NCBI GenBank assembly: GCA_022711405.1
Contig: JAKLFC010000011.1
Location: 8,255-72,254, forward strand
Source: Bacteroidota bacterium
GTDB lineage: Bacteria; Bacteroidota; Bacteroidia; Bacteroidales; JAGONC01
DNA length: 64,000 nucleotides
Direction: 5' to 3'
Shown: positions 1 to 18,557 of the stretch, one piece after another
Layout of the letters: the number at the start of each line of letters is the position of its first letter
How positions within the stretch are numbered: the first letter of the stretch is position 1
Notes under the pieces: generated by a model
What the model saw: the letters and a program-made list of their open reading frames with translations, nothing else
Told to the model about the DNA's origin: nothing
Databases searched by the model: none
Program-made: the position numbers and the translations under genes

Positions 1-269
1 ATGCTCCAGCTGCAGGCTACCTCTTCGTGCTGATAACGCAGCAGGTAGTCGGTGCTGAAGGCGATGCAGACCTGATGGTTGTGCTCCAGGATGGAGATCT
101 TCTTTCCTTCCGGCGCTGAGTGCAGGTAGATCGTACCATTTTCGAATCCGAAGTTAAAAGGCAGTACATAGGGTTTGTTCTCCCGGTCGACCATGGCGAC
201 GTGACAGACCTCACACTTTTGTATGATCTCATAGATGGTGCTGCGGGATTCTATGGGTCGGCTCTTCAT
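1..269 (-). CDS. Pyridoxamine 5'-phosphate oxidase-like flavin-binding protein (C-terminal part runs off the window start)
   Basis: My own reverse-strand translation from ATG 269-267 gives MKSRPIESRSTIYEIIQKCEVCHVAMVDRENKPYVLPFNFGFENGTIYLHSAPEGKKISILEHNHQVCIAFSTDYLLRYQHEEVACSWS with no stop down to position 1. It is absent from the supplied track because it is open-ended. Its ATG overlaps the stop of the upstream gene (ATGA, 266-269). Confidence 0.6.
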   Translation of the reverse strand, partial: MKSRPIESRSTIYEIIQKCEVCHVAMVDRENKPYVLPFNFGFENGTIYLHSAPEGKKISILEHNHQVCIAFSTDYLLRYQHEEVACSWS

Positions 270-613
270 GATGATTGCTTTTTCCTGACATTGATCAGCG
301 AATTTACAAAAGAAATGATCAGGCTGAACAGCAGCGCCCACCAGAATCCATCCACTTCGAACCGTTGCCCGATGAGGTGATCGGCGATCAGGATGATGAC
401 CGCATTGATCACCAGCAGGAACAATCCCAGGGTGATGATGGTGAAAGGGATCGTCAGGATGACCAGCAGCGGTCTGAGAAAGAAATTGAGCAGCGCCAGA
501 ACCACTGCAACCAGCAGGGCGGTCCAGATTGAATCCACATGCACGCCCGGTAAAATGTAGGCTGTAACCAGGATGACAGCGGAGGAGATCAGTAATCTTA
601 ACAGGATACGCAT
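266..613 (-). CDS. Small multi-pass membrane protein, DUF360 / holin-4-like family
   Basis: 115-aa ORF made almost entirely of hydrophobic segments (ISSAVILVTAYILPG, ALLVAVVLALLNFF, LLVILTIPFTIITLGLFLLVINAVIILIA, WWALLFSLIISFV). No phage genes nearby. Confidence 0.6.
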   Translation of the reverse strand: MRILLRLLISSAVILVTAYILPGVHVDSIWTALLVAVVLALLNFFLRPLLVILTIPFTIITLGLFLLVINAVIILIADHLIGQRFEVDGFWWALLFSLIISFVNSLINVRKKQSS

Positions 614-664
614 TTCAATAGGAATTATGATTCAAAGGTAATGGTTTGTGTGATCCGCATTCTA

Positions 665-3574
665 TTAATAAAATGAATTGACATCCATTGAAAATAAAAA
701 TTGGAACATGAATTCAGACTCCTCAGGCAGGTAAATGGTTCGTAATCCCATATCAAAGGGTGCCAGGAACCTCAGTACATGCATATCGGCCGTGAGGTCA
801 AGACCCAGTGACTGGTAGGTATCCCTGTGGAGCTGGTTTTTGCTATCCCTGTACTCACCGGTCGCATAATCCCAGAAAATATTGGCTTTCAGCCTTTTAA
901 GATAGATCACCGGACCGAGGGCCAGGTCGGGGTACCAGAACGGGAATTTATAGCCTGCTGAAAAGCTGAAGGCATCATCCAGGTAGATACCGGAATACCC
1001 CCTGGGATAATTGATCAGATCGGCAAAACGATAGGTGCCGGGATCCTTGCGCTGGTATGCCGTATACAGCCGTAGTCCATGGTGCCTGATAATGCCGGGC
1101 AGGTAGAAGTAGCCTTCCGCTGATCCGATTTCTCCGAGGGGGATCCCGCTGAAAGGCGTATGCCTGAAGTTCAGGTCGAGCGTCATTCCCCACCTGGGAT
1201 AGAGATCGCGGTACGAGGTTTCCATCTGCCCGTACGCCAGCAGCCGGTACTCCATCACCTGGAAAGTACCGGTAACAAAACGGGAAGGAGCGTTCTCGGG
1301 ATGAGTGATATGCATAAAGGTGGCTCCCACAGAAGGCTGCCATCCGACGATCCACCTCGAGACAAGGTATTGAAGAGGTACCCTGAGCATTGTCCTCAGG
1401 TTATCTTCCCTCCAGGAGTATTCGACCTTGGTATCAAGCGAATCATAATAATAGCTTTTACGCTTTCCTATCTGGTAGGTGATGTCGGCCACCGGGTAAA
1501 GCCCGCGGTAGCTGAAGTCGGCAAACCAGGTCCCCTCCCTTTCGTTCATATCGTACCGGTAGCCCAGGGTTGTGAAAGCTGTGCTGAGCTTGTTCTGCGA
1601 CATGATGGATGCCCCGGGGTAGAAGTCCTGGTTGTCCACATCCACATAAAAGGGCCCCCAGCTGTGAACATTGAACAGGTTTTTCCAGTCGCGGTAAGGT
1701 CTGCTGATGTAGTGCGAATCAGCAAGTGCTTCGCCATCAAAGAGATATCCCTCAACCGATGTGAGCGAATCGGCCAGGCTGGAAAGGATATTGTTTTGCT
1801 CTTCCACCGGTTCCCACTCCTCCGGCACCAGCGGCAGGCGTTCGATCCGGTAGCCGTCGCCCGTATAGTTTGCATAATAAAGAAAGCGGTGATCATCGGT
1901 AATGAAAGCATCCGTCGCGCCCAGTGCGACACTGGTGACCTGCCGGATGTGGTGGCCCGAAGTATCCACGGCATAGATCTGATCCACGCCTGAATATCCA
2001 CCGGTGAAATAAACATATTTTCCCGCCGCCCTGGGCAAATAAAGTTCCGTGTGCGACCATGGAGTGATCACAAACCATGATTCCGAAAGCAGATCACAGA
2101 CAATCAATGCTTTACCTTTATCGCAAACACCCACTGCGACGATCTTTCGTTGATTTTCCATCCAGTCAGGGGTCATCAGAGATATGCCGCCGGGTGCAGG
2201 AATACGTTGCCTGACAGCCCCGGTAACCGGATCGAGGATCACCAGGCGGCTCCCGTCGAGTGAATCGAGCTCCACAGCGGCTATGCTGTGTGCGTCAGGC
2301 GACAGGGCAGGAGCAAAGATTCGCTGATGACGGGTGAGATCCCTGACCCTGCCTGTTTCGATATCGTACACCTGGACGTCGGCGTAGCTCCTGTTGTCCC
2401 ACCGGGGATCTGATCTTCTGGCCGACCAGGTGACCAGGTGGTGCGAAGCGGACAGGGTCTGGTTGAAATTAAATCCCGGGGTAAGCAGGACGGTTTCCTT
2501 ACCATTCCTATCAATAAGAATGTAACGGTTCACATCGTCGATGCTGCTTTTTTCTGCCAGAATACCCCGGCCGGGTATTTCAGCCGGGTGGCGGTAGTTC
2601 ACGTAGGTCGAACTTCGGTTGGCAGAGCCGGTGGACATTAATTGTGATTCATGGTCATTCACTGTCATACCTTCATCGCCTTTCCAGCAGGAATCAAGTT
2701 CTGAGAGGATGGAGTGGTATAGTTGGGATTTGGTGAGGCCTGTGTTCTTTTTCAGGGCATGGTTCCAGGGGACCAGCATAAATGGTTTGCGTGCAGCGGT
2801 ATTCATGGCGTCTTCCCAGATGCGGGGGCCGTAGCTGATCCGTGAGGCACCCACAAGGTAATATCCCAGCATGTAATGATTGGGAACGAAATCCTTATAA
2901 GAACCATAGACTGCCTTGTCGTAGGAATAGATGCCATGCGATGCCAGCTGACCCCTGAGGGGCATGGAAAATGAGGGCTCCCTTCCCCTGCCCGAAAGAG
3001 ACCACCCGGTTTCGGCGGCTACTGCATCCCCTTCCAGGAACCAGAAGGGTACAAAAAGACCGATCATGGCGGCTGCAGCCTGTTCGCCAAAAACGTAATA
3101 AAGCCCCCTGGTGAATCCCTGGTTCATTTTTTCGATCTGCTGCACATGCCTGTATTCATGGAGGATCAACTGATCGAGCCAGGGCTGGGAATAGTTATCC
3201 TGTGGAGGCGGGGTAAATATTTCCATCCTGCGGGGTGCCCACGGTACCATGGCATCGCTGAGAACGGAGGTGGTGTGAAAGATGACCGGTAGTTTCCGGG
3301 GACTTGAAGTGAGTGTTTGCACGCCCCTGGCTGTGACCTGCTCAAGCCCCGCTGCAAAATAGTGCGCCTTTGTCTCGTAGTAATCCGGAAAAATGACCTG
3401 GAAATGCTGCGTATTGATCTGCCTCCACTTCAGCGCAGCCGGATCCTGCCCCAAATCAAAATATTGAGTAAAACCGTTCGTAGAAAGTAACAGGAATATG
3501 GGCAAGACCGCCCAAAACATGCTTCTTCCTATCTCTCTCATCTTTCCTCTCTCCTTTCTCCTCTCTCCTCTCAT
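665..3574 (-). CDS. Exported HExxH metalloprotease-like protein with beta-propeller-like middle and outer-membrane-barrel-like C-terminus
   Basis: 969-aa ORF. Signal-like MFWAVLPIFLLLSTNGFTQ, so the true start is probably ATG 3541 or 3520. HExxH in LILHEYRHVQQ. TolB/PD40-like stretches (KYVYFTGGYSGVDQIYAVD). Ends in aromatic ...VNSFY. Only 2 bp from the upstream gene. Confidence 0.6.
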   Translation of the reverse strand: MRGERRKERGKMREIGRSMFWAVLPIFLLLSTNGFTQYFDLGQDPAALKWRQINTQHFQVIFPDYYETKAHYFAAGLEQVTARGVQTLTSSPRKLPVIFHTTSVLSDAMVPWAPRRMEIFTPPPQDNYSQPWLDQLILHEYRHVQQIEKMNQGFTRGLYYVFGEQAAAAMIGLFVPFWFLEGDAVAAETGWSLSGRGREPSFSMPLRGQLASHGIYSYDKAVYGSYKDFVPNHYMLGYYLVGASRISYGPRIWEDAMNTAARKPFMLVPWNHALKKNTGLTKSQLYHSILSELDSCWKGDEGMTVNDHESQLMSTGSANRSSTYVNYRHPAEIPGRGILAEKSSIDDVNRYILIDRNGKETVLLTPGFNFNQTLSASHHLVTWSARRSDPRWDNRSYADVQVYDIETGRVRDLTRHQRIFAPALSPDAHSIAAVELDSLDGSRLVILDPVTGAVRQRIPAPGGISLMTPDWMENQRKIVAVGVCDKGKALIVCDLLSESWFVITPWSHTELYLPRAAGKYVYFTGGYSGVDQIYAVDTSGHHIRQVTSVALGATDAFITDDHRFLYYANYTGDGYRIERLPLVPEEWEPVEEQNNILSSLADSLTSVEGYLFDGEALADSHYISRPYRDWKNLFNVHSWGPFYVDVDNQDFYPGASIMSQNKLSTAFTTLGYRYDMNEREGTWFADFSYRGLYPVADITYQIGKRKSYYYDSLDTKVEYSWREDNLRTMLRVPLQYLVSRWIVGWQPSVGATFMHITHPENAPSRFVTGTFQVMEYRLLAYGQMETSYRDLYPRWGMTLDLNFRHTPFSGIPLGEIGSAEGYFYLPGIIRHHGLRLYTAYQRKDPGTYRFADLINYPRGYSGIYLDDAFSFSAGYKFPFWYPDLALGPVIYLKRLKANIFWDYATGEYRDSKNQLHRDTYQSLGLDLTADMHVLRFLAPFDMGLRTIYLPEESEFMFQFLFSMDVNSFY
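3541..3572 (-). repeat. 32-nt pure homopurine (mRNA sense) tract GAGAGGAGAGAGGAGAAAGGAGAGAGGAAAGA
   Basis: Read directly from the sequence. It lies between the stop of the 991-aa gene and the probable start (3541/3520) of the HExxH gene. Confidence 0.9.
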
Positions 3575-3576
3575 AT

Positions 3577-6552
3577 TTATTCGGGCTTCATCACCACCCC
3601 GATCCTCTTTCTCCCGTCAATGAAGATCTGAAGTGGATGCTCAAAATGGACATGGCGCAGGTATTCATCTTCATAGACCGGTGGAATGGCGGAAAGGTAA
3701 TCAAGGTCATAATACCCGTCCCTGATGTACGGATTGATCGTAAAATAACCCACCCGGAATGAGGTAAGGTTCTGGAAGAAATGGGTTCCCTGGCTGGGGT
3801 CGATGCGGTAATGCGACAGTCCTGATTCAACGATCAGCCGTGCAGCAGATATCTGGGGCCATTTGACGGGGATGCCGAGCCAGGGATCCGCAGATCCCCA
3901 GCGGCCCGGGCCTACCAGGATATAATTCAGTTTCCTCGAAATGAACCATTCGTTCATGCCACTGACTTTCATCGCAATATCGTTTGTCTTGCTGGCAATG
4001 AAAGCCTGGGGCTTTACATAAAGAATATCCTGGATATTTTTGATGGTGCCGTTGCCCAGTGCTGACCTTGAATACAGGATCGTTTTTTCGCAGGGTATCT
4101 CATCCAGTTTTTCCTCAATGACTTCCGTATTATCGACAATAGGCCGGATCTGGAGGAGGTTGAAGACCATGGGTTCTCCCTTTCCCGGGTTCAGGTCAAT
4201 GGCAAATTCGATCTCCACGGGGCGGCTCATCTCCTGTGAACCCATTTCCAGTGCCATATGGATGATCTCCGCCAGTGGAAATACGTTGTGGTTCAAGATC
4301 TTCGAGAAAGTGATGATCCTCTGGCCGGGGTATTGTGTACCGTCGCGCAGCATATTGTTCTCGAAATCCCAGGTAGAGGCAATATTTTTCAGGGAATTGT
4401 CTTTATCTGCTTCATTTACAGGAAGTTTGATCATATTGATGGCATCATCCACATCCGGTTTGAAACTGGCCGGATCCAGGTTCAGGGCATAGAACATCTT
4501 CTGCGTCTCTTTCAATGCCATCTCCGGGGAGGAGAGCTGCAGGATCTTCCGGGGATGTTTGGGTGAGAAACGGAGTGTCATGCCTCCTTCCATCACATAT
4601 TTTCCAAGACCGAATGCAACATTGGCGATGCCGTCCTCGGGTTTTTCGGGTTCGATCGGGTAGAAGTTGATGGAGCGTGCCACACCGGAAATGGAAGGAT
4701 AGAAGCGGTCGTTATACCGCTGTCCGCAGACGGTCTGCAGTACGATCCCCATCTTCTCCTCGTCGATCACGTTGGAGGTGGCGGTCATGTAGGATTTGCT
4801 GTTCCGGAAAAACGCTGAGGCATACACACATTTGATGGCCTCGCTCAGCAGGCGGATCATGAGCCGTTCGTCATTGTCGACATACGGGATCATATAGGTA
4901 TTATAGATCCCTGCAAATGGCTGGTAATGACTGTCTTCCAGCAGACTGGATGACCGGATGGCCAGAGGGTTCCTGACATAGCTGATCAGTGTGTACAGGT
5001 CCTCATGGATCCGGAAAGGAAGCCTTGCTTTGGCAAACTGTTCCAGGATCTTTTCATCCGTAGTTTCTGACAGGGCGATCCGGTACAGATCATTTTGCTC
5101 GATGAATTCGTCGAAGACGTCGGTGCAAAGGACAACCGTTTTGGGTATGGAAACGATGATATCGTCGTATTTGTCGAGGAAGCGGTATTTTTTGATCAGC
5201 GAGTCGAGGAATGCCAGTCCGCGTGCTTTTCCGCCGATGGATCCGTTTCCGATCCGTGTGAAGCTGAGGTACTCATCGAAGCTTTCCTTGTTGAATTCGG
5301 CGATCACGCCCCGTGATTTGTACATCCGGAAGCTGGCGATGGCATCGAAGATGAACCGGCGGATGGCATCCAGGTCGTTGTCAAAGTCGGCCATGCGCAG
5401 GTCGCGCAGCAGGTCGGCCAGGGGGAAAAGGGTCCTTGCGCGCAGCCACTTGGAGATGTGGTTATGGTTGATGTGGTACAGCAAAGAGTCATCGGGCACC
5501 TCGAACATCTTCATCTGCAGGGTCTTCAGGTCCGGCGCCCGGTTGATCTCCTCCATGGTCTCCGGGTCCTGGAACACGAAGTCGCCGAAGGCAAAGAACT
5601 CGATGATGAAGTTCCGCAGCTCGATCGACAGGGTTTTGGAGGTTTTGTTGATGAATCCGACCTTCAGCTCCTTGGCCCGTATTTCGTTGGCCGCATCCGA
5701 ACTCTGCAGCAGCAGCGGCATGAAGACATCGTCCTTCTTGACCTTCATGCACAATTTGATCCCGGCCTCCTTATCCATTTCACCGCCACGCTTGTAACTC
5801 ACGTCGGTGATGATCCCCAGGAGGTTGTTTTTGTATTTTTCATACAGGATGACGGCTTCATCGTAGTTGGTGGCCAGCAGGATCTTGGGTCTTCCCCTCA
5901 TCCGGAGCATTTGCTGGTGCTCATTCAACCCTTCCAGCTGGAACGCCTTCGACTGCTTGAAGATGATCTTGTAGATGTTCGGCAGGTAGCTTGAATAGAA
6001 CCGGATCGAATCCTCCACCAGGATGATGGCCTGCACCCCCACCTCGTTGACATCATGTTCCACGTTCATCTTATCCTCGATCAGCTTGATGATCGCCAGC
6101 AGGATATCAGGGTTCCCAAGCCAGCTGAAGAAGTAATCCACATAGCTGTAATCTTCCTGGCTCACTTTCATGCTGACTTCCCTGGAGAACGGAGTCAGTA
6201 CAACGATGGGCTTCCTGGGGTATTTGTTCTTGATGCGTTTGGCCAGGTCAAAGGTGCCGACGTTGTCGGCGCTCAGCATGATGATGATCAGGTCGATGCT
6301 TTCATTGTCGAGGATCTCGAAGGCTTCCTGGTTGGAGTGTGTGATCATGAACTGCGGAGGGTAGCGCAGGTTAAGGGCCACATACTCATTGAAGATCTGT
6401 TCATCGATGCGGCCGTCACCTTCCAGGATAAAGGCATCGTAGGAGCTCGACACCAGAAGCACATGGTAGATGCGCTTCTTCATCAGGTTGATGAAAGGAG
6501 TGTCGGAGAAGTAGTACCGCTTGAGGTTAAGGATCTTCGGGTTGACAGTCAT
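3577..6552 (-). CDS. Pseudo-receiver + receiver + PEP/pyruvate-binding (PPDK_N-type ATP-grasp) protein
   Basis: 991 aa. Domain 1 is HVLLVSSSYD...DLIIIMLSADN, with SS for the acidic pair and Met at the phospho-Asp position. Domain 2 is IILVEDS...LLGIITDVSY...LLLQSSD, with acceptor Asp retained. ATP-grasp signatures GGKARGLAFL and AIRSSSLLEDS..FAGIYNTY. I see no GGxTSHAA swivel-His motif. Confidence 0.75.
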   Translation of the reverse strand: MTVNPKILNLKRYYFSDTPFINLMKKRIYHVLLVSSSYDAFILEGDGRIDEQIFNEYVALNLRYPPQFMITHSNQEAFEILDNESIDLIIIMLSADNVGTFDLAKRIKNKYPRKPIVVLTPFSREVSMKVSQEDYSYVDYFFSWLGNPDILLAIIKLIEDKMNVEHDVNEVGVQAIILVEDSIRFYSSYLPNIYKIIFKQSKAFQLEGLNEHQQMLRMRGRPKILLATNYDEAVILYEKYKNNLLGIITDVSYKRGGEMDKEAGIKLCMKVKKDDVFMPLLLQSSDAANEIRAKELKVGFINKTSKTLSIELRNFIIEFFAFGDFVFQDPETMEEINRAPDLKTLQMKMFEVPDDSLLYHINHNHISKWLRARTLFPLADLLRDLRMADFDNDLDAIRRFIFDAIASFRMYKSRGVIAEFNKESFDEYLSFTRIGNGSIGGKARGLAFLDSLIKKYRFLDKYDDIIVSIPKTVVLCTDVFDEFIEQNDLYRIALSETTDEKILEQFAKARLPFRIHEDLYTLISYVRNPLAIRSSSLLEDSHYQPFAGIYNTYMIPYVDNDERLMIRLLSEAIKCVYASAFFRNSKSYMTATSNVIDEEKMGIVLQTVCGQRYNDRFYPSISGVARSINFYPIEPEKPEDGIANVAFGLGKYVMEGGMTLRFSPKHPRKILQLSSPEMALKETQKMFYALNLDPASFKPDVDDAINMIKLPVNEADKDNSLKNIASTWDFENNMLRDGTQYPGQRIITFSKILNHNVFPLAEIIHMALEMGSQEMSRPVEIEFAIDLNPGKGEPMVFNLLQIRPIVDNTEVIEEKLDEIPCEKTILYSRSALGNGTIKNIQDILYVKPQAFIASKTNDIAMKVSGMNEWFISRKLNYILVGPGRWGSADPWLGIPVKWPQISAARLIVESGLSHYRIDPSQGTHFFQNLTSFRVGYFTINPYIRDGYYDLDYLSAIPPVYEDEYLRHVHFEHPLQIFIDGRKRIGVVMKPE

Positions 6553-6563
6553 GCCGTAAGGAG

Positions 6564-9500
6564 TTACTGTTTAGCAGGGAGATGTTCTGAAAACGCATCA
6601 TCGAACCGCTTATTCAGAATATCGCAGCCGTGGTGGAACATCCGGCCGCTACTGCTCCCGCTGGTCACCTGGAAAACAAGCCGCTGCAGTTCTTTCGGAA
6701 CCGTCAGCAGCGAAAGCGCCTCCAGGTGAATGTCTTCGATACTGCTGCTCCCGTTCAGGCCGAACAAGCCCAGCAGGTTGCTCAATTGCTGGTAGCCGGT
6801 CTGCTCCACCGGACACTTCAGAACCTTTTCAAATGTCTGGATCATCCTCTGGGTGTTGGTGAAACTGCCCCCCGATTCAAAGGGCATGGAAGCCGGAAGG
6901 ATCAGATGGGCGTGCCGCGCGGTATCCGTCATGAAATAATCCTGCACCATCACAAAGTCGGCAACGGACAACCATCCGGCAACCTTCACCTTGTTGCTGG
7001 CGCACCCCAGGGGGTCTTCCCCAAAGATGAACAGGTTCTTCAGCTGCGCATTTTCAAGAAGCTCGTACAGGTTATTGACGGGTCTTGGAATGGAACGGAT
7101 CTGCCACTTTTCCTTTAACCGGTGATGCAGATCCCTGTCGCTGATAGGTATACCGCCGATGCCAAGATCAGGTGAAATCCCCATGTCCGTCAGTCCCTGG
7201 GAATTGTTCTTTTCCTTGAGGACAAGGATGCCATTGGCTGTCTTTCCCAGCTTGCCCGTGAGCATGGCAAGGTTGTAGATTTCCGAGGCAGTGCCGGCGC
7301 AGCATTCCTTTTCCGAGAAGACAATGATGGCGTTCATTTCCCGGTTGATCTCCTTGGCAAACTCAATGACCTGATCCATGATGGGCACTCCCGAAGCGTT
7401 CAGCAAACCGACGAAGTCTTCCTTCAGGAGCTGCTGCCTGTAGGTGTCGAAATTGTCACAGTTATCATGGATGAAGAGACGGTTTTCGAACCCATTGGCC
7501 ACCAGGTAGTAATTAACAGCCCTGATAAAATGATAGTACGATTTGATGATCAGGCTGGAGTCTGCCTTCCGGATCATGGTGCTTTGCGGATGAACGGTGA
7601 CCAGCTCCACAGGGATATGGTACTGGTACTGGGCCTGATTGATCATGAAACCGGCCACGGCATTGTCGCTGTTTATTTCGGCTCCAATCAGGTAGATCTT
7701 GCTGGCATGCCGGATCTGTTCAAAGGGAACATTGTGGGACGAATCAAAATCATATCCTTTCCCCCTGTTCAGGTAATGGAAGCTACTGATATTGTTTGTG
7801 TTGACAGCGGCTCTTGCCATTTTCTGGACCAGGTACAGCTCCTCATTGGTCAGCCGTGCCCCTGCAAAAAATGCATTATCGTCGGCTTTCACACTATGGA
7901 TGCGCTCCCGGATGATCCGGAACGCCTCGTCAAATCCGATTTCGTGAAAATGTCCGTTTTCCCTGTGAAGCGGCCGGGTGATCCGTGAACGGTCATTGAT
8001 GTAGTGATACCCGAATTTGGCGTACCGGCACAGGTTGCCGTCCTTGTTGATCTCTCCTTCCGTGCCGGTGACCCTCATCACAAAACCGTTCTTATGATGA
8101 AGCATGATGTTGCATCCCACCGAGCAATAATTACAGATGGTCTCTACTGGCTGCAGACTGACCGGCCCTGGCTTGAAGGGTACATTTTCGGTGATCGCAC
8201 CTGTGGGGCAGGTGGATATGCAAAGTCCGCACGATTCACAGGTCGTATCCTGCAATGCATTTCCCATACTGGGTGCCACGAAGGTGTCAAATCCCCGGTT
8301 GATCAGTCCCAGTGCATTGGCCCCGACGACCTCCCGGCATATGCGGATACAGCGTGAGCAGAGGATGCATTTGTTGTTGTCGATTTCGATGTAGGGGTGT
8401 CTGAAGTCGATGGCATACTCGTTGAATCCCCCCATATAGCTGTTCTGTTCTGCTTCGTATTCAGAGCAGTACCTTTTCAGGTCGCAGGTGAAATATTCCA
8501 CGCAACCGCACTCCAGGCAGCGTTGTGTTTCGTGCAGGGCCACCTTTTCGCTTGGGTATCCCAGTTCCACTTCATGGAAGTTCATGCGGTCTGCCGGATC
8601 CAGGGTGGGCATCTCTTCTCTGGCCTGATGTGCGAAGTGAGCGGTATAATCCTCCGGAGTTTGTGTTTTGAAATGATCTTTTTTGCTCAGGAATTCTTTT
8701 TTAACGGATTCGACCGGTTTTCCCATCAGGAAAAGGTGGCAGCTGCGGGAGGCGACCTTTGCCTGCCCGATGGCCTGTATGAGGGTGGCCGGTCCGGTGA
8801 CACCGTCGCCCGCGGCAAAGATGGAAGGGATGCCGGTCTGCAGGGTAAGAGGATCTGCATCGATATCTCCCCACCTGTTGAGCTTCAGTTCTGCGCCGTC
8901 ATGGTGTTTGTTGATGCCATCCAGGAATTTGGCATCCGTTTTCTGGCCTATGGCGGCCAGGATATAATCCACTTCCACGTCAAATTCCGAACCTTCAATG
9001 GGTATGGGCCGGCGGCGCCCCGACCTGTCGGGTTCGCCCAGCTGCATTTTCTGGCAGGTGATGGATTTAACCATCCCTTTTTCGTCCTTATTGATCCTTG
9101 CCGGATTCGTCAGGAGCATGTAGTCGACTCCTTCCAGCCTGGATTCATGTATTTCGATGGGATTGGCCGGCATTTCCTTTTCTGTGCGGCGGTAGATGAC
9201 GATCACTTCCTTTGCTCCGCATCGCCGTGCGGTCCGGCAGCAGTCCATGGCGGTGTTACCGCCTCCGATCACCGCAACCCTCTTGCCGCGGAAGTTGAAC
9301 CGTTCACCGGTCAGTTCCATCTGCTTCAGAAAATCGATACCCGAGAACACGTTGGTGGCGTCTTCTCCTTCACAGCCGATGTTGGTGCCCTTTTGAGAGC
9401 CTATGGTGAGGATCACCGCATCGTACTTCCTTTTGATCTCTTCATAATCCTGGTTTTCTCCAAACCTTTTATTGAAATGGATCTGGACACCCAGTTCGGT

Positions 9501-10268
9501 GATGTTGTCCACTTCTTTTTGCAGCAGGTTGTTGGGAAGCCGGTATTCGGGGATACCATACCGGAGCCATCCGCCAGCCAGGGGAGCGGCCTCAAAAAGA
9601 TCTACCTGGTGTCCTTCTTTTTGCAGGAAGAAGCCACAGGAAAGGCCTGCGGGACCTGCTCCGATCACGGCGACTTTTTTCCCGGTGGAAGGCTTTACCT
9701 GTGGTTTCCATTTATTGGGCGATTCAAGATCGAAGTCCGATGCAAAACGTTTCAGGTAATCAATGCCCACCGCATGACCTTCGCTGAGCAGGTTGCGCCG
9801 GCATGCCACTTCGCAGGGTCTGACGCATACCCTTCCGCAGATGGCGGGCAAGGGATTGGTCTCCTTTATTAAAGCGACCGCTTCGTGATACATCCCTTTT
9901 TCGATCAGGGAAATATACCCCTGCACGTCCACCCCGGCCGGACAGGTATCCTTGCAGGGCCCGATGCAGTCCGCATAATGATTGCTGACCAGCAGGTTGA
10001 GCGCCGTCCTTCGTGCGCCGCGTATCCGTTCGTTATCGGTGCAGATCTTCATCCCCTCGCTGATCCTTGTGGAGCAGGAAGGTTGAAGTCCGCGGAAGCC
10101 TTCGACTTCGACCACGCAGAGGTAACAGGACGTATAGGGCACCAGCCGGGGATCATGGCAAAGGGTGGGTATCTGGATGCCATGCCGGCAGGCAAGCTCC
10201 AGGATGGTCTCACCGGGTTTGCCTTTGAGTATCTTTTCGTTGAGAATTATGTTCACTTCATCACTCAT
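6564..10268 (-). CDS. Mosaic redox subunit: 2Fe-2S ferredoxin + GltD-like NAD(P)H flavoenzyme + 2x[4Fe-4S] + NuoG/FdhA-like molybdopterin-oxidoreductase domain without Cys/Sec ligand
   Basis: 1234 aa. CHDPRLVPYTSCYLCVVEV (2Fe-2S). CIGPCKDTCPAG...CGRVCVRPCEVAC (GltD Fe-S region). VAVIGAGPAGLSCG and VAVIGGGNTAMDCCR (two Rossmann motifs). CILCSRCIRIC and CESCGLCISTCP (ferredoxin motifs). CNYCSVGCN (MopB cluster). TNEELYLVQKMARAAVNTNNISSFHYLNRG where formate dehydrogenases have C/U-H. Confidence 0.8.
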   Translation of the reverse strand: MSDEVNIILNEKILKGKPGETILELACRHGIQIPTLCHDPRLVPYTSCYLCVVEVEGFRGLQPSCSTRISEGMKICTDNERIRGARRTALNLLVSNHYADCIGPCKDTCPAGVDVQGYISLIEKGMYHEAVALIKETNPLPAICGRVCVRPCEVACRRNLLSEGHAVGIDYLKRFASDFDLESPNKWKPQVKPSTGKKVAVIGAGPAGLSCGFFLQKEGHQVDLFEAAPLAGGWLRYGIPEYRLPNNLLQKEVDNITELGVQIHFNKRFGENQDYEEIKRKYDAVILTIGSQKGTNIGCEGEDATNVFSGIDFLKQMELTGERFNFRGKRVAVIGGGNTAMDCCRTARRCGAKEVIVIYRRTEKEMPANPIEIHESRLEGVDYMLLTNPARINKDEKGMVKSITCQKMQLGEPDRSGRRRPIPIEGSEFDVEVDYILAAIGQKTDAKFLDGINKHHDGAELKLNRWGDIDADPLTLQTGIPSIFAAGDGVTGPATLIQAIGQAKVASRSCHLFLMGKPVESVKKEFLSKKDHFKTQTPEDYTAHFAHQAREEMPTLDPADRMNFHEVELGYPSEKVALHETQRCLECGCVEYFTCDLKRYCSEYEAEQNSYMGGFNEYAIDFRHPYIEIDNNKCILCSRCIRICREVVGANALGLINRGFDTFVAPSMGNALQDTTCESCGLCISTCPTGAITENVPFKPGPVSLQPVETICNYCSVGCNIMLHHKNGFVMRVTGTEGEINKDGNLCRYAKFGYHYINDRSRITRPLHRENGHFHEIGFDEAFRIIRERIHSVKADDNAFFAGARLTNEELYLVQKMARAAVNTNNISSFHYLNRGKGYDFDSSHNVPFEQIRHASKIYLIGAEINSDNAVAGFMINQAQYQYHIPVELVTVHPQSTMIRKADSSLIIKSYYHFIRAVNYYLVANGFENRLFIHDNCDNFDTYRQQLLKEDFVGLLNASGVPIMDQVIEFAKEINREMNAIIVFSEKECCAGTASEIYNLAMLTGKLGKTANGILVLKEKNNSQGLTDMGISPDLGIGGIPISDRDLHHRLKEKWQIRSIPRPVNNLYELLENAQLKNLFIFGEDPLGCASNKVKVAGWLSVADFVMVQDYFMTDTARHAHLILPASMPFESGGSFTNTQRMIQTFEKVLKCPVEQTGYQQLSNLLGLFGLNGSSSIEDIHLEALSLLTVPKELQRLVFQVTSGSSSGRMFHHGCDILNKRFDDAFSEHLPAKQ

Positions 10269-10295
10269 GGAAAATTCTCCTCATACCTTCAGTAG

Positions 10296-12074
10296 TTAGG
10301 ATAACCTGATCGCTTCGAACTTGCATTTAGAAAAGCATACACCGCACCTGATGCATTTTTCCTGGTGAATGAAATGCACCTGTTTCCGTTCGCCGGTGAT
10401 GGCTTCCACCGGACAATTCTTTGCACAGACCATGCATCCGGTACACTTGTCAGGGATGACCTCGTAGGTCAGCAGCTGCTTGCAGGCCTTGGCCGGACAT
10501 TTTTTATCCCGGATATGGGCTTCGTATTCGTCCCGGAAATATTTGATGGTGGTCAGCACCGGATTGGGGGCAGTCTGTCCCAGGCCGCACAGGGAGCTTT
10601 CCTTGATCTGGAAGGCAAGGTCCTGCAGCCGTTCGATATCACCCTGTTCTCCTTTGCCTTCGGTGATGCGGGTGAGTACTTCGAGCATTCGTTTGGTTCC
10701 GATGCGGCAGAAGGTACATTTCCCGCAGGATTCTTTCCGTGTGAAATCAAGGAAAAATTTGGCCACATCCACCATGCAGGTGGTTTCGTCCATGACCACC
10801 ATTCCTCCTGATCCCATGATGGCGCCTGTAGCGGTAACGGAGTCATAATCGATGGGCGTATGGGCCAGGTACTCAGGTATGCAGCCTCCTGAAGGGCCTC
10901 CCAGCTGCACTGCCTTGAATTTCTTGCCATCGCGGATGCCGCCGCCCAGCTTGAAGATGATGTCATTGATGCTGATACCCATGGGTACCTCCACCAGTCC
11001 CGACCGCCGTATTTTTCCTGCCAGTGCGAAGACCTTGGTCCCCTTGCTTTTCTCCGTGCCGTACCTGGCATAGGCTTCCGCGCCGTTGAGGATGATCCAC
11101 GGAATGTTGGCATAGGTCTCCACGTTGTTGATGTTGGTCGGCTTTTTCCATAGGCCGGAAGAGGCGGGAAACGGAGGCCGTTTGCGCGGCATTCCTCTTT
11201 CACCTTCCACAGAAGCGATGAGGGCTGTTTCTTCCCCGCAGACAAAAGCGCCCGCGCCTTCTTTAATATGAATGTCGAAATCAAAACCCTGTATCCCCAG
11301 GATGTTGTTCCCCAGGTAACCTTTCCGGCGGGCCTGTTCAAGGGCTATATTGAGCCGCTTGATGGCCAGCGGGTACTCCGCCCGGCAATAGATCACTCCC
11401 CCGGTAGCCTCGATGGCATAGGCCCCGATGATCATCCCTTCGAGCACGGAATGCGGGTCCCCCTCCAGTACCGACCGGTCCATGAACGCTCCCGGATCCC
11501 CTTCATCCGCATTGCAGATGATGTACTTTTCGGTAGCTTTGTTATCATTGGCAAATTTCCACTTCAGCCCTGTCGGGAAACCTCCTCCGCCACGGCCGCG
11601 CAATCCTGAGGAAATGACCGTCTGGACCACATCCATGCGGGAGATCCGCTGGCCGGCTATTTTTTTTATCGCACGGTATCCCTGCCTGGCTTCATACTCG
11701 TCGATGTTCTCAGGATCAATATAACCACAGTTTCTCAGCGTGATCTTGATCTGGTTCTGCATGAAATCATTATCCGCGGTAGGAAAGAGATCTGTCTGGA
11801 CCACATGCTCTTTTACCGGGGTATGATGGATGACATGCCGGTCGATGATCTCCACGGCCCTGATCTCATCGATTTCCCCATACAGGTAGGAACCTGTCTG
11901 GTCAATGATCTCCACCAGCGGTTCGCGGTAACACATCCCGATACAGCTGGTCTTCTTAAGATCAAAATCAAGGTTCTCAGCCTGGCGCAACGCCTGGATC
12001 TTTTCGTAGGTTTTCCCTGCACCGGCTGCGATCCCGCAGCTTCCCAGCCCGACAATGACTTTTATTTTTTCCAT
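10296..12074 (-). CDS. NuoF/HydB-like NAD(P)H-binding FMN iron-sulfur flavoprotein
   Basis: 592 aa. Thioredoxin-like 2Fe-2S N-domain, GRGGGGFPTGLKWKF, ESCGKCTFCRIG, and C-terminal ferredoxin motifs CTGCMVCAKNCP and CIRCGVCFSKC. Confidence 0.85.
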   Translation of the reverse strand: MEKIKVIVGLGSCGIAAGAGKTYEKIQALRQAENLDFDLKKTSCIGMCYREPLVEIIDQTGSYLYGEIDEIRAVEIIDRHVIHHTPVKEHVVQTDLFPTADNDFMQNQIKITLRNCGYIDPENIDEYEARQGYRAIKKIAGQRISRMDVVQTVISSGLRGRGGGGFPTGLKWKFANDNKATEKYIICNADEGDPGAFMDRSVLEGDPHSVLEGMIIGAYAIEATGGVIYCRAEYPLAIKRLNIALEQARRKGYLGNNILGIQGFDFDIHIKEGAGAFVCGEETALIASVEGERGMPRKRPPFPASSGLWKKPTNINNVETYANIPWIILNGAEAYARYGTEKSKGTKVFALAGKIRRSGLVEVPMGISINDIIFKLGGGIRDGKKFKAVQLGGPSGGCIPEYLAHTPIDYDSVTATGAIMGSGGMVVMDETTCMVDVAKFFLDFTRKESCGKCTFCRIGTKRMLEVLTRITEGKGEQGDIERLQDLAFQIKESSLCGLGQTAPNPVLTTIKYFRDEYEAHIRDKKCPAKACKQLLTYEVIPDKCTGCMVCAKNCPVEAITGERKQVHFIHQEKCIRCGVCFSKCKFEAIRLS

Positions 12075-12099
12075 AGGAGCATGGATAGGATTGTACCAA

Positions 12100-12642
12100 T
12101 CAGTTATTTTCTTTGATGCGGATATCCCGTATGATCCGCACAGCTTCCTTGCCTGTCAGTTTTCCAAAGACCTCTCCGGCCACCATCATAACGGGAGCCA
12201 GCGAACAGCAACCCAGGCATGCCACCGATTCAAGGGTAAACAGACCATCCGGGGTGGTCTCGCCATCTTTGACGTTAAGGGCTTCTTTCAGCGAGTCGGT
12301 GATCGTGTTGGCATTCTGCACATGGCAGGCGGTGCCGTGGCAGACCTTGATGATGTTCTTACCCACCGGGTGGAGCCGGAACTGTGCGTAAAAGGTGGCC
12401 ACACCATACAGATCGCTCAGCTTCAGTCCCGTGGCATCGGAAATCCTTTCAAATACATTCCAGGGTATATAGCCATAGATCTCCTGAGCACCCTGAAGCA
12501 AGGGAATGAGGCTGCCCTTTTTCCCCCGGTATTTCTCAAGCAGGGGCTCCAAAAGAGAGAGATCCGCAGGGTCCTGCTCCTGTTTTACCGTTTCCTGGTG
12601 TATCCGTGTAATTCGCATGGTTTCATGAATTGAAATGGACAT
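12100..12642 (-). CDS. NuoE/HydC-like [2Fe-2S] subunit
   Basis: 180 aa. CHGTACHV ... CLGCCSLAP. 25 bp upstream of the NuoF-like gene. An alternative start at ATG 12618 is possible. Confidence 0.8.
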   Translation of the reverse strand: MSISIHETMRITRIHQETVKQEQDPADLSLLEPLLEKYRGKKGSLIPLLQGAQEIYGYIPWNVFERISDATGLKLSDLYGVATFYAQFRLHPVGKNIIKVCHGTACHVQNANTITDSLKEALNVKDGETTPDGLFTLESVACLGCCSLAPVMMVAGEVFGKLTGKEAVRIIRDIRIKENN

Positions 12643-12662
12643 GTAAAAGTAAAAAAATGTTT

Positions 12663-12670
12663 CAAAGGTG
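12663..12670 (-). promoter_or_regulatory. Near-consensus -7 box CACCTTTG upstream of the NuoE-like operon
   Basis: About 20 nt upstream of ATG 12642. The first base deviates from TAnnTTTG. Confidence 0.3.
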
Positions 12671-12710
12671 CTTTAAAATGGAGGAATTATTGCCGGACGC
12701 CAGCTTTTTA

Positions 12711-12718
12711 TACTTTTG
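12711..12718 (+). promoter_or_regulatory. Bacteroidota -7 box TACTTTTG (TAnnTTTG) upstream of the DoxX gene
   Basis: The box ends 19 nt before ATG 12738. Confidence 0.4.
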
Positions 12719-12737
12719 CCTTGCAATAGGATTCCGT

Positions 12738-13220
12738 ATGAATTATTCAAACAGACAGACCATCGCACTTATCGCTCTCAGAATCGCCCTGGGCTGGCAC
12801 TTCCTGTACGAGGGACTCACCAAGATCTTTCAGCCGGGATGGACTTCCAGCACATACCTTATGGATTCCAAAGGATTTCTCAGCGGTTTTTACACGTGGA
12901 TCGCATCCCATCCTTCCGTGCTGTCAGCTGCGGATTTCCTCAATGAATGGGGTCTTACCCTGATCGGCCTTTCGCTGATCCTCGGACTTCTTACAAGGAT
13001 CAGTACCATCGCCGGAATGCTGCTCCTGCTCTTTTATTATTTCTCCCACCCTGCATGGATCGGCTTTGAATATATCTTCCCGTCTGAAGGTGCTTATTTT
13101 ATCGTTAACAAGAATATCATTGAGATTTTTGCTTTGCTGGTGATCTGTTCCTTCCCCACGGATAAAATCCTGGGAGTGGAAAGATTGATAAAAAGGAGAA
13201 AAGGTATAACTGGTGGGTGA
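12738..13220 (+). CDS. DoxX family membrane protein
   Basis: I prefer ATG 12738 (MNYSNRQTIALIALRIALGWHFLYEGLTKIF...). Four hydrophobic helices. The longer supplied ORF (from 12630) would overlap the divergent gene start. Confidence 0.65.
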   Translation: MNYSNRQTIALIALRIALGWHFLYEGLTKIFQPGWTSSTYLMDSKGFLSGFYTWIASHPSVLSAADFLNEWGLTLIGLSLILGLLTRISTIAGMLLLLFYYFSHPAWIGFEYIFPSEGAYFIVNKNIIEIFALLVICSFPTDKILGVERLIKRRKGITGG

Positions 13221-13283
13221 TAGTTATTCGTTGTTATTCATTGTCATTCAAATAATGACCACAACTAACCACAACTAACCGCA
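13221..13283. repeat. 10-bp phased repeats: TAGTTATTCG/TTGTTATTCA/TTGTCATTCA, then ACCACAACTA x2, abutting ATG 13284
   Basis: Read directly. Contains the palindrome GTCATTcaaatAATGAC. Confidence 0.8.
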
Positions 13284-14822
13284 ATGACGAATTTTTCACG
13301 CCGTGACATCATTAAAGGCCTTGCGACGCTTCCGGTGATCGGAGCGGTCGCCTACGGAGTATACCGACGTCAGAAAAGATACAGGGAACTGAACCGCAAT
13401 CTGATGGAAGACATACAGGTGCAGCTTCCCGATGAATTACCGGCGGTGAAGGGTGACAGGCTCCGCATTGGCATCATTGGCACAGGAAGCCGGGGCCGTT
13501 ACCTGCTTAAGGCACTTGGGTATGTGCAACCCGAATCCCTTGACAGATGGCAGGTAAGTGCCAGGGAAGATCCATTTTACAGGGAATACCTGCAAAACTT
13601 TCTCGAACAGGAAGACCTGAATGTGGAAGTCACAGCGGTATGCGATATTTTTGATGCCAATGCGCGGAAGGGAATGCTGGCATCCTCGAATCCGGATCGT
13701 ACGGGCACCGGAGGCAAATCCGGAAAAGAACCGGTGCGCTACAAGACCTATAAAGAGTTGTGTTCGGCATCAGATGTGGATGCCGTCATCATCGCCACAC
13801 CTGATCACTGGCATGTCCCCATGGCACTGGAAGCAGCCCGCAACGGAAAACATGTATATTGTGAGAAGCCCCTTTCATGGACCGTTGCCGAAACGTACGA
13901 GATCAGGAACGTGATCAGGGAAAGCGGAGTGGTGTTTCAGCTGGGACATCAGGGACGCCAGACCGACAGCTACCAGGTGGCCCGGTCGCTGATCCGGCAG
14001 AACGTGCTGGGCAAAGTAACCCTGATCGAGGTCTGCACGAACCGGAATGATCCCAATGGTGCCTGGGTTTACGAAATCCCGAAGGAAGCCGGCCCCGGCA
14101 ACATCGACTGGAACCAGTTCATTGGTCCTGCACCCTGGCATGAATTCAGCCTGGAACGCTTTTTCCGCTGGCGCTGCTGGTGGGATTACAGCACAGGGCT
14201 GAGCGGAGACCTGTTCACTCATGAGTTTGATGCCATGAACCAGATCCTCGACCTGGGCATTCCTCATTCTGCGGTGGCCTCCGGCGGGATCTACTTCTTC
14301 AAGGATGGCCGTACCGTCCCCGATGTGCTGAACATGTCGTTTGAGTATCCCGACCGTGACCTGACCCTTCTTTACAGCGCCACACTGGCCAGTGAAAAGA
14401 ACCGGGGAAAGGTGATCATGGGGCACGACGGTTACATGGACCTCAGCGAAACGCTGGTCATCAACGCGGATCCTCAGTCCACACGCTATCGGGAAAAAAT
14501 GGATCAGGGCCTCATCGAACCCAACAAACCTATCTATTCCTATGTCCCCGGTAAGGACAAAGTAGATGCGGTCACCTCTGCGACCGAAAAATATTTTGCG
14601 GGAAGGGGATTGCTGTATACCTACCGCGGAGGAAAAGAGGTGGATACCTCCCATCTTCACCTGAAGGAGTGGCTTAACTGCATCCGCCGTGGAAACGGAG
14701 CCCGGCCCAGCTGCCACATCGATGCAGCTTTTGAAGAGGCTATGACCGCTCACATGGGAACCATCGCCTATAAGGAAGGCAGGAGGGTTTACTGGGATAG
14801 CGGGAGAGAGAGTATTGAATAG
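13284..14822 (+). CDS. Gfo/Idh/MocA family oxidoreductase, TAT-exported
   Basis: 512 aa. Twin-arginine signal SRRDIIKGLATLPVIGAVA. GIIGTGSRGR Rossmann motif. YCEKPLS motif. Confidence 0.8.
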   Translation: MTNFSRRDIIKGLATLPVIGAVAYGVYRRQKRYRELNRNLMEDIQVQLPDELPAVKGDRLRIGIIGTGSRGRYLLKALGYVQPESLDRWQVSAREDPFYREYLQNFLEQEDLNVEVTAVCDIFDANARKGMLASSNPDRTGTGGKSGKEPVRYKTYKELCSASDVDAVIIATPDHWHVPMALEAARNGKHVYCEKPLSWTVAETYEIRNVIRESGVVFQLGHQGRQTDSYQVARSLIRQNVLGKVTLIEVCTNRNDPNGAWVYEIPKEAGPGNIDWNQFIGPAPWHEFSLERFFRWRCWWDYSTGLSGDLFTHEFDAMNQILDLGIPHSAVASGGIYFFKDGRTVPDVLNMSFEYPDRDLTLLYSATLASEKNRGKVIMGHDGYMDLSETLVINADPQSTRYREKMDQGLIEPNKPIYSYVPGKDKVDAVTSATEKYFAGRGLLYTYRGGKEVDTSHLHLKEWLNCIRRGNGARPSCHIDAAFEEAMTAHMGTIAYKEGRRVYWDSGRESIE

Positions 14823-14833
14823 TCAGCAGCATG

Positions 14834-14856
14834 TCCTGAGGGCGAAGCCCGAAGGA
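14834..14856 (+). terminator. Imperfect hairpin TCCTGAGGGC-GAA-GCCCGAAGGA just after the stop at 14822
   Basis: Read directly. No T-tract. Flanked by AGTCAGC-type heptamers. Confidence 0.3.
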
Positions 14857-14872
14857 TCAGCAGTCAGTAGTT

Positions 14873-14927
14873 TTGGAATTTGGATATTGGGATTTGTTTG
14901 GATTTTGGAAACTGGGATTTGGAATTT
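14873..14927. repeat. GGAATTTGG-family 7-bp periodic repeat (copy 1)
   Basis: TTGGAATTTGGATATTGGGATTTGTTTGGATTTTGGAAACTGGGATTTGGAATTT. Related copies at 45656-45707 (same orientation) and 45991-46043 (inverted). Confidence 0.85.
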
Positions 14928-14937
14928 ATACTGAATC

Positions 14938-15993
14938 ATGATCATCAACACTGCAATTATCGGTTACGGCCTGTCGGGCCGCGTCTTCCACGCACCCTTC
15001 ATCCACACGCATCCCGGATTCCGGCTGCATACAATCGTGACCTCCGGTAATGAAGCGGCAGAACGCTATCCCGGCACCCGGATCCTGAGGGATGTGGATG
15101 CGGTCATTCATGACGGTGAAATTGACCTGGTGTGCATCTGCTCGCCGAATGAATTTCATTTTGATCAGGCCAGGCAGGCGTTGCGTTCGGGTAAGCATGT
15201 CATCCTGGAGAAACCCGTCACCCCTTCCTCCCGCGAGGCTTCCGATTTGCTCGACCTGGCCCGGCAGACACAGTGCCACCTTTTCCCGTTCCAGAACCGG
15301 AGGTGGGACGGGGATTTTCTGACCCTCCGCCAGATCCTCGACCAGGAACTGCTGGGGAATGTCCTGGAGTTTGAATCCCATTTCGACCGCTACAATCCTG
15401 AGATCAGCAGGGCATCCTGGCGGTATGTGAACACCACCGCGGGAGGCACCCTGTACGACCTGGGTACTCACCTCATCGACCAGGCGCTGGTGCTTTTCGG
15501 CAAACCTGAAAGGATCTTCTGCCGGCTGTTCAACCAGCGGAAATACAGTGTGGTGGATGATAGCTTCCACCTTAACCTCCTCTATCCCAACCTGAATGTG
15601 ACCCTGAAGGCGGGTGTCTTTGTCAGGGAAAAAGGACCCCGTTTCACTGTTCATGGTACACGGGGATCTTTTGTGAAGTTTGGACTGGATCCCCAGGAAG
15701 ATGCACTAAGAAATGGGAAATGGCCCAAAGGAGAAGCGTGGGGGAGTGAATCCAGAAAAAACCGGGGAATCCTGAATACAGAGGCGAATGGTCATATCAT
15801 CCGTGGCCCTGTCGAAACCTTCCACGGAAATTACATGGGATTTTTTGATAATGTGTACCAGGTGCTGACCGCACATGCGGAACAGGCTGTGAAGCCTGAG
15901 GAGGCGATCCTTGCACTCACCGTGATCGAAAAGGCCAGGGAAAGTCATGCCTCAGGGCAGGTGGTTTCCATGGAACACGGATTACGCGGATGA
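14938..15993 (+). CDS. Gfo/Idh/MocA family oxidoreductase (no signal peptide)
   Basis: 351 aa. TAIIGYGLSGRVFH. ILEKPV motif. Confidence 0.8.
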   Translation: MIINTAIIGYGLSGRVFHAPFIHTHPGFRLHTIVTSGNEAAERYPGTRILRDVDAVIHDGEIDLVCICSPNEFHFDQARQALRSGKHVILEKPVTPSSREASDLLDLARQTQCHLFPFQNRRWDGDFLTLRQILDQELLGNVLEFESHFDRYNPEISRASWRYVNTTAGGTLYDLGTHLIDQALVLFGKPERIFCRLFNQRKYSVVDDSFHLNLLYPNLNVTLKAGVFVREKGPRFTVHGTRGSFVKFGLDPQEDALRNGKWPKGEAWGSESRKNRGILNTEANGHIIRGPVETFHGNYMGFFDNVYQVLTAHAEQAVKPEEAILALTVIEKARESHASGQVVSMEHGLRG

Positions 15994-16075
15994 CGCAAAA
16001 TTTTCACCGAACCGTCTTAAAATTCCCTTCTTTTTATAAATTAGCCTGTCGAACCAGGATGTAAACTCACCGGAT

Positions 16076-16912: not shown

Positions 16913-16924
16913 AGTGATGTTTTT

Positions 16925-18550: not shown

Positions 18551-18557
18551 TCCAGGA

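Follow-up and report, generated by a model that had tools for sequence, protein, structure and literature searches.

A predicted electron-bifurcating transhydrogenase operon of Bacteroidales and its recurrent neighbourhood of receiver/ATP-grasp and glutamate dehydrogenase genes

A 64,000-nucleotide stretch of a Bacteroidota genome (contig JAKLFC010000011.1, positions 8,255 to 72,254), referred to here as a whole as the window and used for all coordinates, carries five tightly packed genes on its minus strand. The question raised by this array is whether the five genes form one functional unit. Genes 1-3 (the trio) are nfnC, nfnB and nfnA; gene 4, named RR, encodes a receiver/ATP-grasp protein, and gene 5 encodes an exported protein with an HExxH motif. 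A sequence-only reading of the DNA had treated all five as a single unit. In our analyses the array resolved into a known operon, a linked family of uncharacterised regulators and a lineage-specific passenger. The earlier reading had overlooked that the trio and RR belong to a recurrent supercluster, together with a larger paralogue of RR (PAR) and a glutamate dehydrogenase (GDH).

The interpretation that we favour, with a probability of about 0.6, is that the trio encodes the transhydrogenase NfnABC, that RR and PAR belong to a near-universal Bacteroidales family which is tied to GDH and Nfn and tunes the NADPH/glutamate node, and that gene 5 is a passenger.

The trio and the genes linked to it

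Profile annotation (Pfam, NCBIfam) upheld the domains previously called for all five proteins. Gene 1 (nfnC/stnA; 12100-12642, minus strand) encodes a NuoE-like [2Fe-2S] subunit of 180 amino acids (aa), with a 2Fe-2S_thioredx domain (PF01257, E 1e-48); its best solved relatives in the PDB are 9bov_C (7e-56, residues 24-180), 8oh5_A and 9n5u_C. Gene 2 (nfnB/stnB; 10296-12074, minus strand) encodes a NuoF-like flavin mononucleotide/NADH subunit of 592 aa, with an N-terminal thioredoxin-like stretch, the Pfam domains Complex1_51K, NADH_4Fe-4S and SLBB, and a C-terminal 2x[4Fe-4S] ferredoxin domain matched by two Fer4 models (residues 538-590). This subunit aligned over its full length with 9n5u_B (5e-261), 9bov_B and 8oh5_B (E 5e-261 to 5e-255).

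Gene 3 (nfnA/stnC; 6564-10268, minus strand) encodes the large subunit of 1234 aa. Its Pfam domains follow in the order Fer2_4, Fer4_20/Pyr_redox_2 (GltD), Fer4_Nqo3, Molybdop_Fe4S4 and Molybdopterin, and the Pfam search found no Molydop_binding domain. The predicted architecture is an N-terminal [2Fe-2S] domain, an NfnL/GltD-like flavin adenine dinucleotide (FAD)/NADPH domain and a NuoG/Fdh-like Fe-S part with a cofactor-less molybdopterin fold. Excerpts of PMC11829005 assign to the NfnA of Caldicellulosiruptor saccharolyticus a [2Fe-2S] domain at the N-terminus, an FAD domain resembling NfnL and Fdh/NuoG-like domains, and contrast its pterin site with those of formate dehydrogenases. The best solved relatives of gene 3 are 9bov_A (E 9e-241, as a single stretch over residues 9-1032), 8oh5_C and 9n5u_A.

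The array thus contains a NuoE-like subunit (BfuC), a NuoF-like subunit with 2x[4Fe-4S] (BfuB) and a large subunit with a GltD insert, the features that define membership of the Bfu family. The top solved relative of each subunit is the matching chain of the same complexes, which makes the trio an ordinary representative of an enzyme type whose structure is already solved. These matches identify genes 1-3, at the level of sequence, as a flavin-based electron-bifurcating NfnABC/StnABC transhydrogenase of the Bfu family, predicted to couple NADH and reduced ferredoxin reversibly to the reduction of 2 NADP+. The earlier proposal of an NADH/ferredoxin/NADPH transhydrogenase was borne out by the chain matches of all three subunits to 9bov, 8oh5 and 9n5u. 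In an order sample of 201 Bacteroidales genomes, spread evenly, full-length NfnA was found in about 73. The type is hence extended to about one third of Bacteroidales genomes, digester and sediment lineages included; the enzyme itself, of a type already known and solved, adds little.

Further members of the supercluster lie upstream in the window. PAR (23164-27111, minus strand; 1315 aa; Pfam PPDK_N and Response_reg) is 37% identical to RR over 971 residues by BLASTP and has the same architecture, plus an N-terminal extension of 330 aa. Divergent from PAR is a gene for an NADP-type GDH (27175-28530, plus strand; Pfam ELFV_dehydrog), the product of which scored 789 bits against the NCBIfam model PRK09414, 'NADP-specific glutamate dehydrogenase' (cut-off 536). 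Downstream of PAR, three genes (19523-23120, minus strand; Pfam) form a predicted second NADPH module of the NfnSL type. Their products are a Cys-rich Zn-ribbon protein of 307 aa, an NfnS-like protein of 274 aa and an NfnL/GltD-like protein of 600 aa, the last with an N-terminal extension of 140 aa.

In the window, a sugar-oxidation cassette separates GDH-PAR-NfnSL from nfnCBA-RR; several other families have no cassette at this place. The cassette occupies 13284-19427 on the plus strand (about 6 kb) and starts with a gene for a 512-aa Gfo/Idh/MocA-type protein, assigned by Pfam on the orthologue in contig L092.

For a census of nfnA loci, the proteins of the window were mapped onto the surroundings (about 20 kb) of each full-length nfnA in the order sample. 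With a slash written as for the divergent GDH/PAR pair, the layouts found were GDH/PAR-nfnCBA-RR, in some cases followed by a second GDH (genomes G117, G122, G123); GDH-nfnCBA co-directional and divergent from PAR-RR (G033, G174, G066, G111); GDH/PAR-nfnCBA (G185, G120, G073); GDH/PAR-Zn-ribbon-NfnSL-nfnCBA (G070, G118, G114, G083 and the window); nfnCBA/RR-GDH (G198); and GDH/PAR-RR without Nfn (G023). PAR orthologues stand between GDH and nfnCBA in G117, G122, G185, G120 and G073, and the Zn-ribbon, NfnS and NfnL genes recur between PAR and nfnCBA in G070, G118, G083, G165 and G114. At least five arrangements, in many families, keep the Nfn, GDH and RR/PAR genes linked. Since the linkage survives rearrangement, selection is favoured over mere inheritance as its cause.

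An unbiased clustering of all open reading frames (ORFs) in the nfnA loci of 72 genomes ranked the neighbours of nfnA. A ferritin-like gene was found in 30 genomes, RR or PAR in 20, GDH in 17, the Zn-ribbon gene in 8 and the NfnS-like gene in 6; every other family was present in at most 4 of the 72. RR, PAR or GDH occurred in the nfnA flank of 21 of these genomes, for a chance expectation of roughly 2% (a rough estimate for four genes in a 4-Mb genome). These data identify the Nfn-RR/PAR-GDH neighbourhood as a real link, and the conserved unit as the supercluster GDH/PAR-(NfnSL)-NfnCBA-RR, of which the window holds a split copy.

The ferritin-like gene, which encodes a rubrerythrin/ferritin-like protein of 151 aa, is the commonest gene directly after nfnA (for example at 1476-1931 on the minus strand of L102 and 9537-9992 on the plus strand of L045). 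It does not occur at the nfnA-RR junction of the window. Its product could be a fourth partner of Nfn in Bacteroidales, one related to oxidative stress.

The RR family itself is far more widespread than the trio. It was detected in 181 of the 201 genomes, often in two copies, and comprised more than 8000 clusters at 90% identity in a word search and 1208 clusters at 50% identity with E<1e-30. RR directly follows nfnA in G117, G122, G123, G126, L015, L054 and L055, and lies within the examined flank in further families. Together with the gap of 11 bp between nfnA and RR here, and of 12 bp in L092, this adjacency could suggest that RR is an accessory, maturation or regulatory subunit bound to NfnABC, which would make this a Bfu enzyme of four or five subunits. 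We consider this improbable. With NfnA present in only about 73 genomes, and RR found in more than 100 sampled genomes without Nfn, RR cannot be a dedicated Nfn subunit, and the earlier inclusion of RR in the Nfn unit fails on the same distribution. The commonest fourth gene after nfnA, furthermore, is the ferritin-like gene and not RR, and native and recombinant NfnABC and StnABC are described, in the excerpted text of PMC11829005, as active heterotrimers or tetramers of them.

A second census was centred on the 80 closest RR orthologue loci. GDH was found directly downstream of RR in 19 of them, nfnCBA upstream of RR in about 11 (11-13), a glutaminase or aminotransferase gene nearby in 8, and a paralogue of about 1150 aa (PAR) directly upstream in about 20. 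One RR orthologue, 74% identical, has an NfnS/NfnL pair directly upstream in place of nfnCBA.

The GDH genes next to the two paralogues differ. In many genomes a second GDH isoenzyme directly follows RR (for example 17299-18627, plus strand, in L094; 62-65% identical to the GDH of the window, best NCBIfam model PRK14030), and the GDH of the 80% class stands beside PAR. Each paralogue therefore tends to have its own GDH. RR/PAR genes also adjoin split Bfu-type clusters (L089-L091, 1-6006, minus strand; L105, 12408-19406, plus strand), which encode NuoE, NuoF and an 865-aa NuoG-like protein that lacks the GltD insert; NfnS-like and GltD-like proteins are encoded by separate genes that come next. 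These clusters look like an unfused counterpart of NfnABC.

Domain anatomy and possible role of RR

RR (3577-6552, minus strand; 991 aa) was characterised by Pfam, alignment, an AlphaFold2 (AF2) model and Foldseek. The protein is divided into a pseudo-receiver (about 27-165), a receiver (about 172-305), a helical linker (about 305-435), a PPDK_N ATP-grasp domain (about 438-815) and a new C-terminal domain (about 820-991). Pfam matched PPDK_N (PF01326, E 2e-36) and Response_reg; the sequence matches to solved structures were weak and confined to the receivers (YycF, E 0.02).

Conservation was assessed in an alignment of 101 RR homologues (33-52% identity). The first receiver has Met at the position of the acceptor Asp, as aligned to YycF; the second has the acidic pocket, acceptor Asp, Ser and Lys of a receiver, with E180, D250, S284 and K303 each found in at least 90% of the homologues. 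Within the ATP-grasp domain, G440, G441, K442, R533, S534, S535, E539, D540 and Q801 are invariant and E780, E782 and R803 at least 90% conserved, and they include the motifs GGK (440-442) and RSSxxxED (533-540). The C-terminal domain, which had no Pfam match, carries the near-invariant motifs GPGRWGSxDPWLGIPVxW and QG(S/T)H924FFxN.

The AF2 model of RR reached a pLDDT (predicted local distance difference test) of 93 and a pTM (predicted template modelling score) of 0.91. Its top Foldseek matches were the ATP-grasp domain of rifampin phosphotransferase, HpeI (a stand-alone ATP-grasp subunit), the tandem receivers of PleD, and pyruvate phosphate dikinase (PPDK), with 5hv1 and 1kbl among the fold matches of the ATP-grasp domain.

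Homologues of RR are called 'phosphoenolpyruvate synthase' by NCBI, and the PPDK_N domain accords with that name, which would make RR a metabolic phosphoenolpyruvate (PEP) synthase or PPDK feeding PEP or pyruvate to the pathway. This alternative is very improbable. The NCBIfam PEP synthase models score only 18-46 bits on RR, for cut-offs of 598-883; Pfam and NCBIfam found neither a PEP/pyruvate-binding TIM barrel nor another known substrate domain, and the N-terminus is taken up by two receiver domains. A search of the own genome with the PEP-utilizers swivel domain (PF00391, GGxTSH motif) matched only two other genes, on contigs C7 and C23, and neither RR nor PAR. When the profile of the RR C-terminal domain was compared by hhalign with Bacteroidales swivel domains, the probability was 0.2%. 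A true PEP synthase was rejected on domain content and NCBIfam scores, and a canonical swivel domain concealed in the RR C-terminus on the Pfam, PF00391 and hhalign results. Because the C-terminal domain is unlike the phosphohistidine swivel domain, dikinase chemistry of RR is only putative. Sequence and model together place RR as a probable receiver-controlled enzyme of the dikinase ATP-grasp lineage, and not a PEP synthase.

From these features and the gene neighbourhood we infer that RR and PAR act as signal-gated, ATP-using regulators of the NADPH/glutamate node. Nfn would supply or consume the NADPH that GDH uses. The two would make up a pair, one delivering and one spending NADPH, that serves ammonium assimilation or, when run backwards, the oxidation of glutamate. 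Phosphorylation of the second receiver (D250) would switch RR and PAR, which would use ATP at the ATP-grasp site to modify a target, either one of the two enzymes (GDH or Nfn) or a metabolite. The conserved residue His924 in the C-terminal domain is a candidate phosphoryl carrier, a role suggested by analogy to dikinases and to HpeHI, a split kinase (PMC12167813). The outcome would be a tuning of the NADPH/glutamate (ammonium assimilation) node.

In its most specific form the proposal is that RR and PAR are a new class of receiver-gated ATP-grasp modifying enzymes, equipped with a C-terminal phospho-carrier domain (His924) of a kind not seen before, which post-translationally control NADP-GDH and/or Nfn and so set the NADPH/glutamate balance across Bacteroidota while ammonium is assimilated. 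We advance it tentatively, and judge it somewhat more probably wrong than right. Yamamoto et al. are said to have described, in J Gen Microbiol in 1987, a reversible inactivation of Bacteroides GDH in vivo; RR/PAR could be the missing agent of this inactivation.

Several observations weigh against a functional tie between RR and the Nfn/GDH node. In about 70% of the Nfn loci (51 of 72), RR, PAR and GDH are all absent from a range of about 8 kb, and most RR genes have no Nfn nearby. Housekeeping neighbours without relation to this node (Obg, adk, hpt and PAP2) recur in 9-11 of the 80 closest RR loci, about as often as nfnA (11-13). On the RR tree, Nfn adjacency and GDH adjacency each require only about three changes, so that much of the adjacency is inherited and not independent. 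To these are added the hhalign result given above, a literature search that yielded nothing relevant to the RR family or to a system that modifies GDH in Bacteroides, and the RNA data, in which no contig of the sparse, low-depth assemblies of runs X25 and X26 covered the 6552/6564 or 3574/3577 junction.

The gene counts and the clustering on the tree, as well as the far wider distribution of RR than of Nfn and an opposite-strand DUF4136 gene between nfnA and RR in L088 and L093, would be expected if the neighbourhood were an accident, with RR and gene 5 unrelated to Nfn, the packing historical, and RR working with GDH only or with something else. We regard this explanation as unlikely, and as the strongest of those that compete with ours. 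RR/PAR and GDH occur around nfnA at least fourfold more often than any other family, once the NfnSL and ferritin-like genes are set aside; the linkage is kept through the rearranged architectures described above; and in other genomes this position next to RR or PAR is occupied by NfnSL, a different NADPH module. A tie of RR and PAR to the NADPH/glutamate node remains our preferred reading.

RR is a signalling enzyme of about 1000 aa, present in about 90% of the sampled Bacteroidales and mislabelled 'PEP synthase' in databases. Gene order ties it to NADPH supply (Nfn) and NADPH use (GDH), the steps that decide ammonium assimilation in these anaerobes, which makes RR a concrete candidate, open to testing, for a regulator that acts on nitrogen assimilation and redox balance post-translationally or in response to a signal. 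The phylum concerned dominates guts and digesters, and RR orthologues should exist in genetically tractable Bacteroides.

Gene 5 and the transcription of the array

Gene 5 (665-3574, minus strand; 969 aa, probably 958 aa) was assigned by alignment, AF2 and Foldseek as an exported outer-membrane protein. It consists of a signal peptide, a helical HExxH...E domain (40-300) in which the motif reads HEYRH, a TolB-like β-propeller (325-581) and a C-terminal β-barrel (636-963) ending in FY. In the AF2 model (pLDDT 89, pTM 0.87) the barrel has about 16 long strands and the HExxH motif lies in a helix at 132-150; the top Foldseek matches were TolB and tricorn. By sequence, solved structures gave weak TolB matches alone (E about 5e-4 to 2e-3). 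H139, E140, H143, E181, G182 and D183 are invariant among 100 homologues. No peptidase family was matched by Pfam and no peptidase fold by Foldseek. Gene 5 is best described, on sequence and model, as a putative zinc-peptidase-like protein of the outer membrane.

The gene 5 family is present in 124 of the 201 genomes, usually as a single copy. It follows RR in six of the seven judged genomes of the window's own family (G000, G083, G201, G202, G203 and G206; not G204) and in metagenome contigs L090-L093. Outside this family, gene 5 was never found to follow RR or to adjoin Nfn closely, and lies 7-24 kb away in a few genomes. In G117, G122, G123 and G126, where RR is adjacent to nfnA, the gene 5 homologue is on other contigs. 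With its place after RR confined to the window's family, gene 5 was rejected as a conserved module member, and the view of the five genes as a single functional unit is not supported in that form. Adjacency of the last two genes in this genome alone, which would have refuted the earlier reading, was not what we found: gene 4 directly follows the trio in several other families, the four genomes just named among them, and the adjacency of gene 5 is kept within the family. We read gene 5 as a family-level passenger, placed after RR in the family ancestor, with no detectable functional tie.

The ORF list agrees exactly with the five co-directional genes and the gaps of 25, 27, 11 and 2 bp that had been described from gene 1 to gene 5. 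The close homologues of gene 5 (P0123, P0124) are 958 aa long, and the true start is probably the second ATG, at 3541, which gives a protein of that length; the last gap then becomes 35 bp instead of 2 bp. A pure-purine run, AGAGGAGAGAGGAGAAAGGAGAGAGGAAAG, is located at 3544-3573 on the minus strand, between the RR stop codon and this likely start. Read in the longest gene 5 ORF, it gives the implausible N-terminus RGERRKERGK.

In a scan of the array stretch, every terminator-like site fell within coding sequence and none in an intergenic gap of the array, and the number of sites (19, for a shuffle expectation of 13.3 +/- 3.6) was near chance. The sigma-70 consensus scan is uninformative for Bacteroidota. 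Within the five genes, the minus strand has no perfect Bacteroidetes -7 motif (TAnnTTTG). The strict pattern TTTG...TAnnTTTG had two matches in the window, which is the chance level, and none in the operon. The sole perfect -7 motif on the minus strand of positions 1-13300, TACCTTTG, is at 633-640, after gene 5. It sits in a 51-bp gap ahead of a Phage_holin_4_2-like gene (613-266) and suggests that this gene begins a new transcript. Upstream of gene 1, a DoxX gene runs in the opposite direction, leaving a divergent promoter region of about 95 bp ahead of the array.

RNA data came from two public metatranscriptome-type runs (X25, X26), whose contigs are short and of low depth. All five genes had transcripts at a low level in these data, and the nfnB/nfnA junction is spanned by one contig (10188-10343). 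Given the tight gaps and the lack of terminator-like sites in them, it is plausible that the five genes are co-transcribed in this genome, as a lineage-specific packing.

The tight coupling of nfnA and RR, which the sequence-only reading had stressed, is a feature of the closest relatives only, such as L092. In other relatives 100-700 bp separate the two genes, or a DUF4136 gene (about 181-184 aa) stands between them on the opposite strand (L088, 5038-5583; L093, 6254-6808), which breaks any co-transcription of nfnA and RR there. For these reasons RR would normally have its own promoter.

Comparison with known systems

Gene 5 has its TolB-like propeller in common with propeller proteins of the TolB/tricorn type, and its invariant HExxH, followed by a downstream Glu, resembles the motif of the gluzincin (HExxH...E) metallopeptidases. 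Unlike all of these, it combines the propeller with a helical HExxH domain at the N-terminus and a β-barrel of about 330 aa at the C-terminus.

With rifampin phosphotransferase, PEP synthase/PPDK and the two-component kinase HpeHI, all of the PEP-utilising dikinase superfamily, RR has in common the ATP-grasp fold of PPDK_N and the nucleotide/Mg residues GGK, RSSxxED, ExE and QxRP. It departs from these dikinases in having neither a canonical swivel nor their substrate domains, and in its two N-terminal receivers and its new C-terminal domain, in which a His is conserved. A tandem of pseudo-receiver and receiver ahead of an enzymatic output is also found in the Rec-Rec' regulators of the PleD type, the chains of which took Foldseek ranks 6-12. 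In RR the order is reversed, with the pseudo-receiver first, and the output is an ATP-grasp domain, whereas that of PleD is a GGDEF cyclase.

The trio agrees in its subunits and in the gene order C-B-A with NfnABC of Caldicellulosiruptor saccharolyticus (9bov/9bp5), StnABC of Sporomusa ovata (8oh5/8oh9) and the archaeal Nfn-Bfu complex (9n5u). The NfnA of these complexes and gene 3 have the same layout of [2Fe-2S], NfnL/GltD-like FAD and cofactor-less Fdh/NuoG-like domains, and their NfnB, like gene 2, has a C-terminal 2x[4Fe-4S] domain. That no described version includes gene 4 or gene 5, as had been claimed from the sequence, agrees with the excerpts of PMC11829005, in which the solved NfnABC/StnABC complexes are heterotrimers, and with a literature search that found nothing on the RR family. 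The trio differs from the solved complexes in its source, a Bacteroidales metagenome-assembled genome of anaerobic digesters, neither acetogen nor thermophile, and in its setting within a GDH/RR/PAR gene cluster.

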